From positions 1 to 64,000 of IMG/VR virus record IMGVR_UViG_3300045988_145627: a stretch of DNA of 64,000 nt; one strand, 5' to 3'. The notes under the pieces were generated by a model, which saw only the letters and a list, made by a program, of their open reading frames with translations, made no database searches and was not told where the DNA came from. This DNA is from a virus. Its lineage: Duplodnaviria; Heunggongvirae; Uroviricota; Caudoviricetes. Made by a program: the position numbers and the translations under genes. Below are positions 41,765 through 44,883 of this stretch, in pieces. How positions within the stretch are numbered: the stretch's first letter is position 1; every line of letters starts with the position of its first letter.

Positions 41765-41910
41765 TTCCATACATCTCATTGGCTTTTATGGCTGGCTTCC
41801 TTATCGGCTTCGGCATCTGTCGTGATTTGATTAAGCAGGAACTTAAAACCAAAACACTGTGCATCGGGAAGCGTGTGTATCGGGTAGTTCATGAAACAAA
41901 GGTGAGAACA
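41761..41910 (+). CDS. small hydrophobic protein (49 aa), putative
   Basis: ATGA overlap at both ends; below track size cutoff; hydrophobic MIPYISLAFMAGFLIGFGIC. Confidence 0.3.
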
Positions 41911-42200
41911 TGAGCAATTTAACTTCTTGGGACTGGTGGTTGGTACACTATTTCTTAGCGGCCGGAGTCGCATTCGCCTTTTACGTAGGTCAGTTAGTCG
42001 TAAAACTGTTGCTGATTAAATTTGCTAGTCATAAACGTATCGATGATGGTCTGTGGCGTCTTGGCACCCTGGTGGAAACTCGCTACGGGCAACTTAAGGA
42101 GAACGAAACCATTACTATCCAAGCGAAACGATTCACTGCCACCATCACAAGAACACCTAGTCGTAGAGTGGCCTTGATCAAAAAAGTCACAACCGAATAA
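41910..42200 (+). CDS. small membrane protein
   Basis: N-terminal TM WWLVHYFLAAGVAFAFYV. Confidence 0.35.
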   Translation: MSNLTSWDWWLVHYFLAAGVAFAFYVGQLVVKLLLIKFASHKRIDDGLWRLGTLVETRYGQLKENETITIQAKRFTATITRTPSRRVALIKKVTTE

Positions 42201-42978
42201 AAACACAAAGATAAGTATTTACTTACTTATCTTTTATGTATAAGATGACTTTGTTTTCGTTGAGACGCGACTGTTTGAACTTAAATACAAGTGCAAACGA
42301 AGAAGTCTATCTGGCAGTAGCCTAATAAGCCAAACACCAGCGAGGTCAGTTTCCAGCCTCGTTACCGAAATGGGACACACTGAGCGAGTGTGATTGCAGA
42401 ACGCAGGAGGGAACATTCATGTTCCCTCCGATGAAGTAACAGAATGGGCGGTTGGTATATTTTCAACTCCATATGACTCCCGGATTCTTAGCCACTGACC
42501 GCCCATCCTGTTACGTCATTTTGTTCAATTATGTCGTTTATACTGGGTTAAAAAGCGGCGACGTAGCCCGGCTGGTATGGTTAGCCAGCACACAACGTTG
42601 AGGCCATTACATTTTTATTAATTCTAAGGTTCTATTCACAGAGATACCGGCGAGCGTTGATATGTAACATGTTGGGCAAACATTCAATCGGAGTAGTGGC
42701 CTCAACGTTGTGAAGACAGGATTGTTGTGTAGGTTTAACCACTGTTGCCATTGGTGCCTGTTTTCACAACAAATGATTCCATACATCACATTGTATAAAT
42801 TACAAAGTAGGTGCTGTCCTCAGAAACATCATCTACTTAAAGATTTTGCCTTCTACTATTGAGCGAAGTCGAAAGCGTCTGGCACTAACGAAAAGTGCAA
42901 GTAGCGGTGCGTTTCCTGGCAGAAACTAAACCGTCGCGATTGGCACTGTTGAGTAATAAATACTGGCAGTGCCGAATT

Positions 42979-43053
42979 GATGGTGTAGCTCAGCGGTAGA
43001 GCAGTTGGCTGTTAACCAACTGGTCGGTGGTTCGAATCCGTTAACCGGCACCA
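42979..43053 (+). tRNA. tRNA-Asn(GTT)-like, non-canonical T/acceptor stems (possible pseudogene or fragment)
   Basis: Canonical D arm GCTC-AGCGGTA-GAGC, anticodon arm GTTGG-CTGTTAA-CCAAC, T loop TTCGAAT, 3' CCA; T and acceptor stems need wobble pairs and mismatches. Confidence 0.45.
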
Positions 43054-43266
43054 ACACAACAGGAAAGAGCATTGAGAACCGCCGAGACTGCACTGTTTGA
43101 AGCGTAAGTCCGTGCAAACGTCATACAGTGCTCTTTTCGTTGTGGTGAATGCGGCTAAGCGCACGCGGGGAAATGGTTATATTGATCCTTTGTGATGTCT
43201 ATTGGCTCCGTCCACGGTGGATAACCAGCCAAAGGACACCGGGAAGCACCCGGCACCATAACAATT

Positions 43267-43353
43267 GGAGAGTAGGGAGCATGGTGCTCAAGCGGTCTTG
43301 AAAACCGTCCCATTGCGCAAGCGATGATGGTTCGATTCCATTACTCTCCGCCA
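43267..43353 (+). tRNA. tRNA-Ser (anticodon TGA), type II with long variable arm
   Basis: Acceptor GGAGAGT/ACTCTCC, anticodon loop CTTGAAA, T arm GATGG-TTCGATT-CCATT, 3' GCCA. Confidence 0.8.
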
Positions 43354-43508
43354 GACACAGCGTTGAGCGGTTTGGCCTTTTAATCAACTCGATTAAGACT
43401 CCGCTAACATAAACCAGACCGCTCAACGCTGTGATAGACAATTACGGCAGACGTTCTTAACCATAGCTTGCTAACATCCTAGCAACACTTTTTTTCAGCG
43501 CAAAATTC

Positions 43509-43532
43509 AAAGGGGCTTCGGCCCCTTTTTTG
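43509..43532. terminator. bidirectional intrinsic terminator
   Basis: AGGGGC-ttcg-GCCCCT flanked by A-run upstream and T-run downstream; between convergent tRNA locus and minus-strand gene. Confidence 0.7.
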
Positions 43533-43548
43533 AAAGCAATGGGCAAGT

Positions 43549-44883
43549 TCATGCCAAATTATCCAGATTTCTTTTCTTTTGTTCAATTATATTTCTCGCG
43601 CCAGAAAAAATTTTACTCAAAATAATTGATTTGCTTGCTCTATTATTAAGATGTAACAACGCGCTATAAAATACATAGTTATCTATTTTACTATTTAAAG
43701 TATTCCCAAGCTTCCCGTCATATATGCTATTAATAGTATTAAAATATACATGTTCAGGACCTATATTACAAATACCCCTATCAACTCGCTTTAAATAATG
43801 TTTAACTAAAGAAATAGCATCTTCCTTATCATTAATAACATAAAGTCCTGAGCGTTTACCCAGTTTGCTGTTCGAGAGCAATTTACAACCTACAAGCTCA
43901 CTTAACGTATCTTCAAAATTTTTCAACTCTTTGTCGGCGTTTTCCAGATAATGCTCAATCTCTTTCTCCATATTACTTATTAGAGAATTAAATTCTGCTC
44001 GTAACAAATCACCACCAGGTGATTTATAACTCCATAAAATTGAATTGGTAATACGTACTACGTCAGATACTTCTGGTTTCTCTGAATAGTTTTTGTATCT
44101 AGTGCAAATAATGCTGTGCTTTATATATTCTCTAACTAATGATCGATAATCCCTTTCGAAAAGGGTTTTGACATCTAGTCTTCCATTGCTTGTTGTTATT
44201 AGTGTGGTATTTAAAACTGGGTCGCCTTCAAAAAAATTATATTTATTTAGTAATCGTTTTAGCTTGTGTGAATTATGTGATGTTTCGCCATAATAATTTA
44301 GCCCAAAAATAGCAATTATTAGCATAACATCAGGAGTGATGAAATGTCGTAATTGCTCGGCATAAACTTTTTTCTCTTCGATTTTCGAAGATGGAGAGTA
44401 AAAACCTTTGTCTATATATTCTAATATTGAAACAATATTACTAACATAACGTATAAAAACTTGATTCATTACAACGGAACCATAAACCTGATGCAAATAA
44501 TCTACTCTCAAGTTGTTTTTTATTTTTTCCCCTGTGCTAGATGATAACTCTTCTTTTACCTGCCCAAGTAGCTTTTCGTGGTGCTCCAGCAATGTTTTAA
44601 ACCATTGTTCAAATGATGATTTTCTTGCCTCAGTTAATGAATCTGATGTTATCTGGACAGCTTTCATAGCTGCTTTCGCACTTTTCTTTGCTTCATAAGC
44701 GTTCCATGCTGTAGCACAAAAAGCTGCCGCCGTGATGCAACTGGTAAAAATAGAAATCCTATCTGCAACATTCAAGCTCCAGAACCAATCAGACGATGAA
44801 ATCAAAACCACAGATATTACGGGAACAATGAAAATCAAAACAGGCATGTATGTACTCGCTCTAATAGTTATTAGTCGAGGCAA
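43549..44883 (-). CDS. A+T-rich membrane-anchored protein of unknown function (candidate exclusion/abortive-infection factor)
   Basis: 444 aa; N-terminal TM helices (MPVLIFIVPVISVVLISS, ISIFTSCITAAAFCATAW), large soluble C-terminal domain; composition differs visibly from flanks. Confidence 0.55.
   Translation of the reverse strand: MPRLITIRASTYMPVLIFIVPVISVVLISSSDWFWSLNVADRISIFTSCITAAAFCATAWNAYEAKKSAKAAMKAVQITSDSLTEARKSSFEQWFKTLLEHHEKLLGQVKEELSSSTGEKIKNNLRVDYLHQVYGSVVMNQVFIRYVSNIVSILEYIDKGFYSPSSKIEEKKVYAEQLRHFITPDVMLIIAIFGLNYYGETSHNSHKLKRLLNKYNFFEGDPVLNTTLITTSNGRLDVKTLFERDYRSLVREYIKHSIICTRYKNYSEKPEVSDVVRITNSILWSYKSPGGDLLRAEFNSLISNMEKEIEHYLENADKELKNFEDTLSELVGCKLLSNSKLGKRSGLYVINDKEDAISLVKHYLKRVDRGICNIGPEHVYFNTINSIYDGKLGNTLNSKIDNYVFYSALLHLNNRASKSIILSKIFSGARNIIEQKKRNLDNLA

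Follow-up and report, generated by a model that had tools for sequence, protein, structure and literature searches.

The transfer-messenger RNA (tmRNA; SsrA, 10Sa RNA), ~360 nt in length, is defined by a tRNA and an mRNA joined in one molecule. In the Escherichia coli tmRNA, U85 and A86 (positions -5 and -4) set the resume frame, the resume codon GCA follows AUAGUC at the end of an A/U-rich stretch, the tag ANDENYALAA is closed by a double stop, and pseudoknots flank the message domain, PK1 upstream and PK2-PK4 downstream. The tRNA-like domain can be charged with alanine, and the RNA binds SmpB and EF-Tu and enters stalled ribosomes. In the two-piece (permuted) tmRNAs of alphaproteobacteria, cyanobacteria and others, the coding part is separate from the 3' CCA part, bears the 5' acceptor strand and pairs with the acceptor piece encoded just upstream. 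The CDS-less tmRNA of mycobacteriophage DS6A, a type also found in some plastids and mitochondria, is a phage-borne partial tmRNA and a precedent for half-tmRNAs interfering with trans-translation. Phage tRNA clusters can also contain other stable RNAs, such as the species 1 and 2 RNAs of phage T4. Finally, the prophage Hfq-associated sRNAs STnc100/PasD (RF02076) are typical of lambdoid late-leader regions (bioRxiv 10.64898/2026.05.13.724894).

The window analysed here, a 64,000-nt stretch of phage DNA, is by sequence an SSU5-like E. coli phage-plasmid, with 99% identity to phage Cyrano, pLF82 and CMS-2020a. With moderate confidence, we read the locus around its tRNA genes as a plus-strand RNA-gene island in which the first gene is like the message body of a tmRNA and the tRNA-like half is absent. 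This gene probably spans ~42253 to 42392 and may continue to ~42526. It is preceded by a putative promoter of its own, and its structured RNA is derived from, or closely mimics, the tmRNA message body. Our comparison is built on observations of sequence anatomy, conservation, covariation, a coding-type substitution pattern and genomic contexts. The element shares with tmRNA a resume GCA after an A/U-rich stretch (A at -6 and -4, mostly U at -5), a 10-codon tag of the pattern AN[DE]xx[YF]LAVA, a double stop in a helix-5-like loop and H-type pseudoknots directly downstream. It differs in being without a tRNA-like domain or a detectable PK1, in having two post-tag pseudoknots instead of three, in a tag that ends LAVA instead of ALAA, in its length of ~140 nt, and in being embedded in phage tRNA/sRNA islands, where a longer transcript often includes it as one module. 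The DS6A type is its mirror image, since DS6A keeps the tRNA-like half and loses the message half, whereas the phage-plasmid module keeps the message half and pseudoknots. As in the two-piece tmRNAs, the coding part is separate from a 3' CCA part, and the tag region has a weak local match to the Rfam model tmRNA_permuted, but the phage module is without an acceptor partner or pairing strand. Compared by description only, it also resembles the RNAs of phage tRNA clusters, small structured RNAs of unknown or regulatory function that are co-transcribed with tRNAs and released by processing.

Putative promoter and tag-like frame of the tmRNA-like gene

The features of the first gene, all on the plus strand, are listed with the evidence for each in brackets.

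42207 to 42235, plus strand: AT-rich hairpin, 11 bp and perfect, followed by a T run (repeat search, fold)
42218 to 42223 and 42241 to 42246, plus strand: putative sigma-70 promoter of the tmRNA-like RNA, -35 TTTACT, 17-nt spacer, -10 TAAGAT (lineage comparison)
42253 to 42392, plus strand: core of the tmRNA-like RNA (comparison across lineages)
42293 to 42328, plus strand: tag-like frame (local alignment to E. coli ssrA, Rfam, ARAGORN on a homologue)
42311 to 42340, plus strand: helix-5-like hairpin, CUGG...CCAG or alternatively UGGC...GCCA (structure comparison)
42341 to 42375, plus strand: pseudoknot a (covariation)
42376 to 42392, plus strand: stem 1 of pseudoknot b, CACACU/AGUGUG with loop GAGCG (covariation)

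The core opens with an invariant 5' GUUUUCG and continues through an A/U-rich stretch, the tag frame, the helix-5-like hairpin, pseudoknot a and stem 1 of pseudoknot b. The tag frame, which the earlier note on this DNA had missed, reads GCA AAC GAA GAA GTC TAT CTG GCA GTA GCC TAA TAA and encodes ANEEVYLAVA followed by two stops, compared with ANDENYALAA and two stops in E. coli. It is 10 codons long and has no conserved start codon. Judged by its sequence it has the make-up of a tmRNA message domain, a start-less frame that begins at an Ala codon, ends in a hydrophobic C-terminus and has both stop codons in the loop of the 42311-42340 hairpin. A local alignment to E. coli ssrA spans the frame, and sub-threshold Rfam matches to tmRNA_permuted (16.2 bits, gathering score 47) and beta_tmRNA (14.4 bits, gathering score 84, E 0.012) coincide exactly with the resume and tag region, with no other tmRNA-family matches. 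These weak matches emerge only with 300 nt searched; at E-value thresholds over 1.5 kb no tmRNA family was found, and at gathering thresholds the window gave tRNA only. In a Felix-like homologue, ARAGORN reports a 'resume consensus aataaatgcaaacgataa' and the tag ANDNVFLAVA with two stops.

The copies of the module carry 13 tag variants of the pattern AN[DE]xx[YF]LAVA, part of which is fixed by the search pattern and gives no independent support. Synonymous pairs occur among the tags (GAT/GAC, GAA/GAG, CAA/CAG, TAT/TAC and TTC/TTT), the codon entropy is 5.3 at the third position versus 2.6 and 2.8 at the other positions, and the remaining two frames are either not conserved or contain stops. 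Directly before the resume codon, the bases are conserved in a manner consistent with a tmRNA: positions -6 and -4 are A in 33 of 33 distinct cores and position -5 is U in 30 of the 33, the window having C. In-frame stops are found 5 to 12 codons upstream of the tag, and in most lineages ATG, GTG and TTG are absent from the interval.

The putative promoter has 8 of 12 consensus matches. Its -35 box lies in the loop and 3' arm of the 42207-42235 hairpin, which resembles a terminator for the 96-aa ORF located upstream (41910-42200). The conserved GTTTTCG begins 7 nt downstream of the -10 box, and a TAnnnT hexamer is located 6 nt before GTTTTCG in every promoter-bearing lineage (TAAGAT, TATGAT, TATAGT, TAAAAT or TAAGGT), with TTGACA-17-TAAGAT in Felix-like phages. 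A consensus scan for promoters and terminators reported no plus-strand promoter, this one included, and neither of the two terminators at 43464-43531; the promoter and terminators were instead assigned from comparative evidence and direct reading. We infer transcription and processing of the RNA, as well as any contact with SmpB, S1 or ribosomes, and expression is read from promoter conservation and context only.

The functional product could in principle be a small protein or leader peptide, from the MFPPMK mini-ORF to which the earlier note drew attention or from a 26-codon ORF that runs from ATG 42246 into the tag frame, but this is very improbable. The AGGAGG and the mini-ORF ATG-TTC-CCT-CCG-ATG-AAG-TAA are present as described, because the sequence reads CAGGAGGGAACATTCATGTTCCCTCCGATGAAGTAA, and AGGAGG stands 7 nt before the ATG; in the E. 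coli lineage the in-frame ATG 42246 yields MTLFSLRRDCLNLNTSANEEVYLAVA. However, this ATG falls inside the -10 box, and the Klebsiella, SSU5, Felix and lambdoid lineages are without a start codon in frame, with the same stops 5 to 12 codons upstream. Nor is sequestration of the AGGAGG and mini-ORF supported as a conserved feature, since the hairpin that contains them (hairpin c, below) changes sequence and length with compensation in relatives; MFPPMK is not kept and is incidental.

Pseudoknots and the search for a tRNA-like half

The helix-5-like structure is plausible, although covariation adds nothing to it, each of its pairs being either invariant or imposed by the search pattern. The pseudoknots were examined in 78 distinct sequences, 76 of which were parsed. 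Stem 1 of pseudoknot a (CGAGG 42341-42345 with CCUCG 42357-42361) is fully paired in 75 of the 76, in seven sequence variants, and stem 2 (loop UUCCA 42351-42355 with UGGGA 42371-42375) is paired in all 76, with the variants CCGA/TCGG, CCAG/CTGG, CCAA/TTGG, TTCCA/TGGGA, TTCCA/TGGAA and CTCCA/TGGAG. Helices 3 and 4, which belong to pseudoknot a, are 99.5% and 100% paired in a set of 40 sequences, with 3 and 2 covarying pairs, respectively. All variants of stem 1 of pseudoknot b pair as well (CGCAC/GTGTG, CGCAT/ATGTG, CGTAC/GTATG, CGCAG/CTGTG, CGGAT/ATCTG, CACACT/AGTGTG and CAGACT/AGTCTG). In other lineages, its loop pairs downstream to give a second H-type pseudoknot, the stem 2 of which co-varies together with indels (GCCC/GGGC, GCCCTGA/TCAGGGC, ACCCTGA/TCAGGGT and GCCCAC/GTGGGC). 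This stem was counted from the parsed table, as MAFFT misaligns the indel-bearing loops, which rules out a column-based count. In the window type the downstream partner of the loop is uncertain and may be CGC at ~42401. Overall, the 40 sequences are 98.5% paired and contain 67 compensatory cells versus 19.1 in shuffles (0 of 500 shuffles reach 67, and slid controls give 0-1). Set against tmRNA, the element has two covariation-backed H-type pseudoknots downstream of the tag and none conserved upstream, where RNAalifold predicts neither a PK1-like pseudoknot nor other 5'-domain structure.

The invariant 5' end invites another explanation, in which GUUUUCG(U) is an antisense seed that blocks codons 3-5 of the host tmRNA tag (ACGAAAAC) and the remaining RNA is a scaffold. 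We give this little credence. GUUUUCG is invariant while the element's own tag codons vary, and no covariation by eye links the two; complementarity to host ssrA amounts to 9 to 11 bp, extending in different directions by lineage, and the tag region is the best ssrA duplex site for 16 of 24 distinct 5' ends. The duplexes are, however, no better than those of shuffled 17-mers (mean -13.4 kcal/mol versus mean -13.0, sd 2.4), GUUUUCGG subtypes favour other ssrA sites, and, the element tag being homologous to the host tag, the match may arise as a side effect of an internal helix between the 5' end and the tag. When the whole module is paired with E. coli ssrA, the duplex gives no signal (-76.4 kcal/mol versus -77.8 on average for shuffles).

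A tag conserved in a coding-type manner, with A-6 and A-4 conserved before the resume codon, is what would be expected of a complete working tmRNA, one-piece or two-piece/permuted, which adds ANEEVYLAVA to stalled products and the tRNA-like domain of which was overlooked. Genome notes for Felix O1 and Moogle report 'ssrA', and ARAGORN calls a 'permuted tmRNA' in one Felix-like contig. We nevertheless regard a working tmRNA as quite improbable. The two 'tRNA domain' halves in that lone call come from ordinary tRNA genes nearby, at distances of 290 to 570 nt and with two whole tRNAs between. In the window, and at the module in ~126 of 127 contexts scanned, ARAGORN detects no tmRNA. The Rfam tmRNA models match the tag region only. 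Neither a T arm nor a CCA was found in the module flanks inspected in four lineages, and the lambdoid and siphovirus copies are bounded by spacer-hairpin boxes. The four genomic contexts have nothing in common outside the module, and a G3-U70 pair is impossible at the 5' end because the RNA begins GUU. As far as its sequence can be read, the element thus has none of the G3-U70 acceptor stem, T arm and 3' CCA that mark a tmRNA tRNA-like domain. Hairpin f, just downstream, was considered as a T arm and rejected, as its loop AUGGUUA is not a T loop. No SmpB homologue was detected within the window (best tblastn E 3.4, with a query checked against the smpB 3' end).

Hairpins, tRNAs and an STnc100-like element downstream

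The remainder of the island, also on the plus strand, contains the following features.

42406 to 42429, plus strand: hairpin c, GGAGGGAACAU/AUGUUCCCUCC (repeat search, alignment, covariation)
42431 to 42526, plus strand: hairpin d, 22-bp stem 42431-42452/42498-42519, 45-nt variable top, then UUUUGUU
42529 to 42589, plus strand: conserved stem UUAUGUCGUU/GGCGACGUAG (42529-42538/42557-42566) and hairpin f (42571-42589)
42591 to 42712, plus strand: long hairpin I2, ~20-bp stem with an 82-nt variable interior (repeats, covariation)
42772 to 42787, plus strand: 16-nt block AATGATTCCATACATC (alignment)
42942 to 42973, plus strand: leader hairpin GGCACUG...CAGUGCC (fold)
42979 to 43053, plus strand: chimeric Asn/Thr pseudo-tRNA (alignment with Cyrano tRNA-Asn and tRNA-Thr)
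43055 to 43144, plus strand: spacer hairpin CACAACAGGAAAGAGCAUUG...CAGUGCUCUUUUCGUUGUG, ~20 pairs (repeats, fold)
43121 to 43262, plus strand: STnc100/PasD-like sRNA element (RF02076)
43267 to 43353, plus strand: regular tRNA-Ser(UGA) with encoded CCA (ARAGORN, Rfam)
43356 to 43433, plus strand: trailer hairpin I3, 20-bp stem 43356-43375/43414-43433 with a 38-nt loop
43464 to 43495 (UUGCUA...UAGCAA and U7) and 43509 to 43531, plus strand: two intrinsic-terminator-like hairpins (direct reading, fold)

The earlier note had described the stretch before the tRNAs as free of ORFs of 60 aa or more and rich in inverted repeats. It is indeed ORF-poor, and gene annotation is absent in Cyrano and the RefSeq E. 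coli records listed, but the minus strand has two mechanical ORFs of exactly 60 aa (42234-42416 and 42607-42789). All the repeats named in the note exist, and relatives preserve them by means of compensatory changes. They are also non-random, with fold z-scores of -5 to -8: z = -5.0 for 42201-42440, -7.95 for 42400-42980 and -6.9 for 43054-43540, with no shuffle folding as well in any of the three. The repeat of hairpin c (I17, 42406-42416/42419-42429) is perfect over 11 nt with a 2-nt loop, as had been reported. The pair 42591-42606/42697-42712 is a 16-nt perfect core that extends further, to 20 nt at 95% (42591-42610/42693-42712), and the 20-bp hairpin 3' of tRNA-Ser exists with its first arm shifted by one (true position 43356-43375). 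The shared core, CACARCGTTGAG, occurs four times in 64 kb, at repeat arms only, versus 0.69 expected (0 of 100 shuffles reach four). The longest repeat, I1 (42431-42452/42498-42519, 22 nt), and the third long hairpin (43055-43144) had gone unnoticed.

Hairpin c is conserved in position and variable in sequence and length, with 7 of its 11 pairs changed on both sides. The stem of hairpin d (I1) has 25 pairs, is 99.3% paired and is mostly invariant or altered on one side into G-U; its U tract is weaker in relatives. Hairpin d may act as a leaky terminator or form the 3' end of the tmRNA-like RNA. The stem at 42529-42538/42557-42566 has three invariant U-G pairs, helices 4 and 5 of the downstream region (42529-42589) are 100% paired, and inspection suggests a possible interleaved pairing, CUGGGUU/AGCCCGG (42543-42549/42565-42571). 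I2 begins 1 nt after hairpin f with the base CACAAC...GUUGUG, and of its 19 pairs, 98.2% paired, 3 are changed on both sides. Taken together, the downstream hairpins are paired in 98.5% of cells in SSU5-like relatives, and 12 pairs are changed on both sides versus 5.3 in shuffles (0 of 500 shuffles reach 12, and slid controls give 0-2). The block AATGATTCCATACATC is nearly invariant across all SSU5-like relatives, the most divergent included. The leader hairpin, which ends 6 nt before the tRNA, is found in E. coli-type relatives only.

These compensatory changes agree with the proposal in the earlier note of a structured ncRNA, as does the direction of folding: many invariant G-U pairs are possible on the plus strand only, and the plus strand folds 21.5 kcal/mol better than the minus strand. 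A role of the palindromes at the DNA level, either as the lytic origin that the note also suggested or as a site bound by protein, is hardly credible. The long repeats are perfect and the island lies among replication genes, with primase and DNA ligase upstream, but iterons are absent (short two-copy direct repeats only), DnaA-box-like sites are not in excess (50 in the window versus 61 expected, with 3 one-mismatch sites in the locus), and there is no AT-rich dip, the GC content being 41-52%. Moreover, the conserved G-U pairs would read as A-C mismatches in the opposite strand. The hairpins also preserve their pairing despite free drift in sequence.

The three ~20-bp hairpins (I2, 43055-43144 and I3) share the base CACARC/GYUGUG and have stems of 20 to 23 pairs. 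Each begins 1-2 nt beyond an RNA module's 3' end, which supports the earlier proposal of a processing/terminator set for the tRNA transcript. I3, with the base CACAGC...GCUGUG, begins 2 nt after the CCA of tRNA-Ser, SSU5-type relatives have a related trailer hairpin after tRNA-Asn, and the boxes of the 43055-43144 hairpin also flank the tmRNA-like module in its lambdoid and siphovirus versions. The three are probably processing or 3'-protecting hairpins, which would serve as RNase III-type double-stranded processing sites and/or 3'-end protectors and so free the modules from one precursor; RNase III processing is suggested by stem length alone. In such a precursor, the tmRNA-like gene would be followed by the conserved hairpins, a broken Asn/Thr tRNA, the STnc100-like sRNA element and tRNA-Ser, in that order. 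The operon likely ends at the two terminator-like hairpins, the second of which, GGGGCUUCGGCCCC, lies between an A run and a U run and is bidirectional.

The element that the earlier note called Asn-like is so in its 5' two thirds, from tRNA-Asn(GUU), but it is joined at the T loop (GGTTCGAATCC) to a tRNA-Thr 3' end identical to that of Cyrano tRNA-Thr. Its acceptor stem (GAUGGUG/AACCGGC) has two mismatches and its T stem (GGUGG/CCGUU) three G-U pairs, and it scores 52.1 bits with non-standard pairs versus 74.5 bits for the intact P1 tRNA-Asn. From its sequence, 42979-43053 would not fold into a regular tRNA cloverleaf. The place of the Cyrano tRNA-Thr is occupied by the STnc100-like element, which aligns to the whole RF02076 model (E 1e-7), including GGUGAAU...CACCGGGARGCACCCGGCACCA, and is filed as 'STnc100-like' only because its 43.4 bits fall below the gathering score of 47. 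Unlike STnc100, it sits on a phage-plasmid, between two tRNA genes. It shares ~88% identity with a stretch of phage P1 that has no annotation (70068-70196), and P1 has a dicF-like region, tRNA-Asn, tRNA-Thr and this STnc100-like stretch in one operon. At the gathering score, STnc100 was found in none of 13 related loci, the P1 locus included. Identity with the lambdoid Pas sRNAs was considered and rejected: PasA is an 84-nt sRNA ending in a terminator, so a different thing.

The tRNA broken by a deletion, which shows that the island decays, could be taken to mean that the tag frame is likewise a decaying, functionless relic of a captured ssrA fragment and the hairpins mere leader, spacer or terminator structures of a tRNA operon. 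The locus adjoins tRNA genes and the three long hairpins resemble inter-module spacers. This explanation is improbable, however. In a relic one would not find a 10-codon frame still open, with synonymous-type variation, across four unrelated phage lineages, nor two pseudoknots maintained by compensatory changes and matched indels, nor a promoter of its own with a conserved TAnnnT at a fixed distance.

Spread of the module and its possible roles

The module was found in more than 120 viral contigs, in three species-representative genomes (Buttiauxella, Kluyvera and Pseudocitrobacter), and in 258 of 5426 complete E. coli genomes, where 256 of 270 places are on plasmids. Its carriers comprise Felix O1-like tRNA arrays, lambdoid late leaders (HK620), Klebsiella siphoviruses, and Yersinia pestis pMT1 with other enterobacterial SSU5-like plasmids. 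The context is always a tRNA or late transcript, on the sense strand. In Y. pestis pMT1, the module adjoins the caf1 capsule genes, and the HK620-type late-leader region that holds the module is the type of region in which STnc100 occurs. The module is unannotated in all records examined. The only earlier notice consists of 'ssrA' entries from ARAGORN, mentioned in passing for Felix O1-like phages; the literature searched contained no tmRNA-like element in SSU5-like, HK620-like or Klebsiella phages, and the supplementary data of a tmRNA database paper had nothing on these phages. A tmRNA-like gene without a tRNA-like half is a form that has not been described.

As to function, the tmRNA-like RNA would engage the ribosome-rescue machinery of the host in the same way as a tmRNA message part. 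It is quite possible, though tentative, that it is a competitive mimic that modulates trans-translation. That the tag frame is truly decoded as an alternative tag template, by some further route, is a more doubtful possibility, and we think it somewhat unlikely that these RNAs are a phage family with a tmRNA message half only that is nonetheless decoded, as a tag template not covalently linked to a tRNA-like domain. In that case the tRNA-like domain would come from a partner RNA or, in trans, from the host tmRNA-SmpB complex. Finally, it is unlikely that the element is an unrelated regulatory RNA with its origin in a tmRNA fragment. The evidence points in two directions as to mechanism: there is no known decoding route without a tRNA-like domain, yet the substitutions look coding.

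These phage RNA islands are built as modules set apart by ~20-bp hairpins with a common base, which should aid the annotation of prophage sRNA/tRNA cassettes. The carriers of the tmRNA-like module include medically relevant replicons (Y. pestis pMT1, the SSU5-like plasmids of Salmonella, Klebsiella and Enterobacter, and pLF82/Cyrano) as well as Felix O1-type therapeutic phages and lambdoid prophage late leaders. A conserved RNA with the mRNA half only, under coding-type constraint, is unexpected under the current model of trans-translation, and would imply either a new route that feeds a template to rescued ribosomes or a jamming or retuning of ribosome rescue by phages. If the frame is decoded, phages could re-write the degradation tag on stalled products, with LAVA instead of ALAA.

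The RNA island of an SSU5-like phage-plasmid

Positions 42000-43600 of the window are 98-99% identical to Escherichia phage CMS-2020a and phage Cyrano (plasmid pLF82), and about 80% identical to Salmonella phage SSU5, Klebsiella and Enterobacter phage-plasmids and Yersinia pestis pMT1; on these identities, the window is assigned to an SSU5-like phage-plasmid of E. coli. Genes for a primase and an ATP-dependent DNA ligase (PF01068) precede the RNA-gene island, along with small ORFs; after it come an AT-rich gene whose product has a weak AbiC-like domain, as well as genes for a glutaredoxin and an integrase. The AbiC-like gene, a 444-aa ORF converging on the island (43549-44883, minus strand), matches PF16872 (putative phage abortive-infection protein AbiC) at 22 bits, a borderline score level with the cutoff. 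It lies within a stretch of 30-33% GC, at a position where Cyrano is annotated with small genes alone (117 aa, glutaredoxin), and looks like an inserted defence cargo gene. In pMT1 (KIM10+ pMT-1, comparison locus L008), the tmRNA-like core of the island (hereafter the module) and its downstream hairpins are retained to the 3' arm of the long hairpin (1501-2013). Homology ends 14 nt before caf1R (2027-2932), indicating that the F1 capsule locus abuts the island and has replaced its tRNA part.

Features of the RNA island (window coordinates, strand, description)
42341-42345/42357-42361, plus, pseudoknot a stem 1
42351-42355/42371-42375, plus, pseudoknot a stem 2
42376-42381/42387-42392, plus, pseudoknot b stem 1
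42406-42429, plus, hairpin c, recovered by RNAalifold in 12 relatives
42431-42519, plus, hairpin d, recovered likewise
42529-42566, plus, 10-bp stem, recovered likewise
42571-42589, plus, hairpin f, recovered likewise
42591-42712, plus, long hairpin, recovered likewise
43055-43144, plus, spacer hairpin directly after the chimeric tRNA
43267-43353, plus, tRNA-Ser(UGA), 3' of the STnc100-like element
43356-43433, plus, trailer hairpin after tRNA-Ser(UGA)
43464-43495 and 43509-43531, two terminator-like hairpins after the trailer hairpin

The earlier note described an ORF-poor locus dense in inverted repeats. It is ORF-poor, save for two mechanical ORFs of exactly 60 aa, both on the minus strand, and no gene is annotated in this stretch in Cyrano or the RefSeq E. 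coli records listed. The repeats are present at 42406-42416/42419-42429 (11 nt, perfect), 42591-42610/42693-42712 (20 nt) and 43356-43375/43414-43433 (20 nt, the first arm having been placed one nucleotide off), and their shared core CACARCGTTGAG is restricted to four arms in 64 kb (0.69 occurrences expected). The longest repeat (42431-42452/42498-42519, 22 nt) and the third long hairpin (43055-43144) had been overlooked.

The proposed structured RNA is supported by folding (z = -5.0 for 42201-42440, -7.95 for 42400-42980 and -6.9 for 43054-43540) and by compensatory changes among 12 SSU5-like relatives (E. coli, Salmonella, Yersinia, Klebsiella, Buttiauxella and metagenomic viral contigs). 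In this alignment 98.5% of 852 cells are paired, and 12 pairs changed on both sides vs 5.3 in shuffles (0 of 500 reach 12) and 0-2 with slid partners. The pairs include several invariant G-U or U-G ones, whose counterparts on the opposite strand would be A-C mismatches, and the plus-strand fold is 21.5 kcal/mol better than that of the minus strand; the hairpins are conserved as plus-strand RNA. Hairpin c varies freely in sequence and length with 7 of 11 pairs compensated, so the 6-codon mini-ORF MFPPMK and the AGGAGG to which attention had been drawn are incidental. Nor is the suggested lytic origin supported, the locus having no iterons, no excess of DnaA boxes and no AT-rich dip. Just 3' of hairpin d, interleaved complementarities AUGUCG/CGACGU and CUGGGUU/AGCCCGG (42529-42571) could form a further H-type pseudoknot, whose first stem is 100% paired with little variation. 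The stretch AATGATTCCATACATC (42772-42787), for which no convincing promoter geometry or pairing partner was found, is kept almost unchanged throughout the SSU5-like relatives, even in the two most divergent contigs, which have different surroundings.

The presumed tRNA-Asn (42979-43053) derives from tRNA-Asn only in its 5' part: it follows Cyrano tRNA-Asn up to the T loop and continues as the 3' end of Cyrano tRNA-Thr, with the junction in the T loop GGTTCGAATCC common to both. Its acceptor stem has two mismatches and its T stem three G-U pairs, and it scores 52.1 bits vs 74.5 for the intact P1 tRNA-Asn. Cyrano carries Asn, Thr and Ser tRNA genes in a row; the element is a deletion chimera, so this plasmid no longer has either the Asn or the Thr gene intact. 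An STnc100-like element (43121-43262) scores 43.4 bits over the whole length of the STnc100 model, short of its gathering score of 47, and is 88% identical to an unannotated P1 stretch between upl and tciA (locus L004, 2001-2129). STnc100 and PasD are sRNAs of lambdoid late leaders (bioRxiv 10.64898/2026.05.13.724894). The ends of the element are closed by a 9-bp stem, beside a hairpin CCGGG-AAGCA-CCCGG, and it finishes in ...GGCACCA, resembling the 3' end of the adjacent tRNA-Thr; it may have arisen from a tRNA by degeneration. The base CACARC...GYUGUG occurs in the window only in the long hairpins 42591-42712, 43055-43144 and 43356-43433 (20-23 pairs), each starting 1-2 nt after the 3' end of a module of the island. 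These may act as inter-module processing and 3'-protecting hairpins, and their stem length would make RNase III the obvious candidate for cutting them. The plain GGGGCTTCGGCCCC-T6 hairpin at 43509-43531 was not listed by the terminator scan.

A tmRNA-like tag frame followed by pseudoknots

Alignment of three of the distant module copies revealed a frame at 42293-42328, GCA AAC GAA GAA GTC TAT CTG GCA GTA GCC TAA TAA, encoding ANEEVYLAVA and two stops. The best local alignment of E. coli ssrA, the tmRNA gene, whose tag GCAAACGACGAAAACTACGCTTTAGCAGCTTAATAA reads ANDENYALAA and two stops, falls exactly on this stretch. The tag is ANEEMYLAVA with one stop in HK620 and ANDNVFLAVA with two in phage Michonne, and the 13 tags among the matches listed are all AN[DE]xx[YF]LAVA save single AKDDQFLAVA and ANSDQYLAVA. 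Outside the search pattern, six codons have an entropy of 5.3 bits at the third position vs 2.6 and 2.8 at the first and second, with synonymous pairs GAT/GAC, GAA/GAG, CAA/CAG, TAT/TAC and TTC/TTT; the other two frames are unconserved or contain stops. ATG, GTG and TTG are absent from the frame in most lineages, with an in-frame stop 5 to 12 codons upstream; an in-frame ATG at 42246 in the E. coli lineage is unconserved and falls inside the -10 box. In E. coli tmRNA, U85 and A86 set the frame. Every one of the 33 distinct module cores has A at positions -6 and -4 before GCA, and 30 of them have U at -5, matching E. coli tmRNA (AUAGUC, then GCA).

The stops fall within the loop of a hairpin (CUGG...CCAG, or UGGC...GCCA), an arrangement shared with tmRNA helix 5; these pairs are invariant, so covariation is uninformative here. 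Two tandem H-type pseudoknots (a and b) follow, and 76 of the 78 distinct sequences could be parsed. Pseudoknot a shows seven variants of stem 1, six fully paired (TGAGG/CCTCA, CGAGG/CCTCG, CAAGG/CCTTG, CAGGG/CCCTG, CGGGG/CCCTG, CGCGG/CCGTG) and one with a mismatch (CAAGT/CCTTG). Its loop-to-downstream stem is paired in all 76 parsed sequences (CCGA/TCGG, CCAG/CTGG, CCAA/TTGG, TTCCA/TGGGA, TTCCA/TGGAA, CTCCA/TGGAG). Stem 1 of pseudoknot b is paired in each of its seven variants, and stem 2 tracks indels on both sides (GCCC/GGGC, GCCCTGA/TCAGGGC, ACCCTGA/TCAGGGT, GCCCAC/GTGGGC). Counted formally in 40 sequences of lambdoid, siphovirus and Felix type, pairing reaches 98.5%, and 67 cells are compensatory, vs 19.1 in shuffles (0 of 500 reach this) and 0-1 with slid partners; the pseudoknot stem is paired throughout (100%) and contains two covarying pairs. 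The module matches the message half of tmRNA in detail, with two pseudoknots after its tag where tmRNA has three.

In lineages with a stand-alone module (SSU5-like, Felix-like), a TAnnnT hexamer (TAAGAT, TATGAT, TATAGT, TAAAAT, TAAGGT) stands 6 nt before an invariant GTTTTCG. A putative -35 box lies 17 nt upstream of it (TTTACT in the window, 42218-42223; TTGACA in Felix-like phages), and the module RNA probably starts at G42253. Some of the transcripts could end at hairpin d with the following UUUUGUU (to 42526); since relatives have a weak U tract, transcription probably runs on into the tRNAs.

Distribution of the module

By distant BLAST, about 100 nt of the locus (42241-42395) recur, unannotated, in three unrelated settings:

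Felix O1-like myoviruses: within the tRNA array, between tRNA-Ile and tRNA-Arg
HK620 and HK633: late leader, flanked by qut and the late terminator
Klebsiella siphoviruses (Carvaje, for example): flanked by the capsid gene and a tRNA-Ser

A pattern scan found the module in at least 120 IMG/VR contigs, in Buttiauxella, Kluyvera and Pseudocitrobacter when one genome per species was searched, and in 258 of 5426 complete E. coli genomes, where 256 of 270 places are on plasmids. It always lies in tRNA arrays or late transcripts, in the sense orientation. An STnc100-like 5' motif GTGGTGAATG occurs at most 330 nt after the module in 24 of 55 distinct lambdoid, siphovirus and Felix-type contexts, often after a spacer hairpin (...ACAACAGGTAAGAGCATTG ... 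CAGTGCTCTTTCCGTTGTG) and before tRNA Ser/Arg/Met. The order module, spacer hairpin, STnc100-like motif, tRNA looks like a recurring cassette (lambdoid and siphovirus loci L013, L016, L040, L086, L094, L098, L103 and others).

Nothing is annotated under the module in the records examined, which cannot exclude a tmRNA feature in phage records, since annotation tables seem to omit them: ssrA is absent from the E. coli K-12 table at 2755300-2756200.

The missing tRNA-like half and candidate functions

In the window ARAGORN reports no tmRNA, and none at the module in about 126 of 127 contexts. In a Felix O1-like contig (L096) it called a permuted tmRNA with 'resume consensus aataaatgcaaacgataa' and tag ANDNVFLAVA with two stops. 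This call is an artefact joining a real tag frame to the 3' half of one ordinary tRNA gene and part of another, with two complete tRNAs between these and the tag. Passing statements of 'ssrA' in Felix O1 and Moogle (PMC4319497, PMC4392139) probably stem from it, and our literature search found no paper on the module beyond such mentions. Restricted to 300 nt, Rfam searches surface beta_tmRNA (14.4 bits, E 0.012) and tmRNA_permuted (16.2 bits) on the resume and tag region, weak local matches far below the gathering score, as expected for a fragment. Lambdoid and siphovirus copies are bounded by boxes CAGTGCTCTTTCC and ACAACAGGTAAGAGCATTG, strands of adjacent spacer hairpins, and have neither a T arm nor CCA in their flanks. 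No pseudoknot was found upstream of the tag, and no SmpB homologue is encoded in the window. Judged from sequence, the module lacks the tRNA-like domain that defines tmRNA, and so falls outside that family; it would be a tmRNA derivative previously undescribed beyond the 'ssrA' mentions. Mycobacteriophage DS6A presents the mirror image: its tmRNA, reported to inhibit host tmRNA (PMC11915505), keeps only the tRNA-like half, whereas the module keeps the message half.

The invariant 5' end GUUUUCG(U) (42253-42262) gives a lead to another function, as an antisense seed on the host tmRNA tag. It is complementary to ACGAAAAC, codons 3-5 of the E. coli ssrA tag (locus L005, nt 94-106), and the match is lengthened in different directions by lineage to 9-11 bp, but shuffles reach duplex energies just as good.

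We infer that the module RNA is transcribed and encounters the trans-translation machinery. Its coding-type pattern of conservation, together with the retained frame-setting bases, speaks for its recognition as a tag template by SmpB and the ribosome, whereas the lack of a tRNA-like half argues that the known route into the ribosome is closed to it. That the frame is truly decoded, by a route beyond those known, seems somewhat less likely than the mimicry proposed next. Because the template-like frame and the missing half pull in different directions, we tentatively favour a mimic of the tmRNA message body, which would compete for its binders: the SmpB tail, S1 and the mRNA channel.
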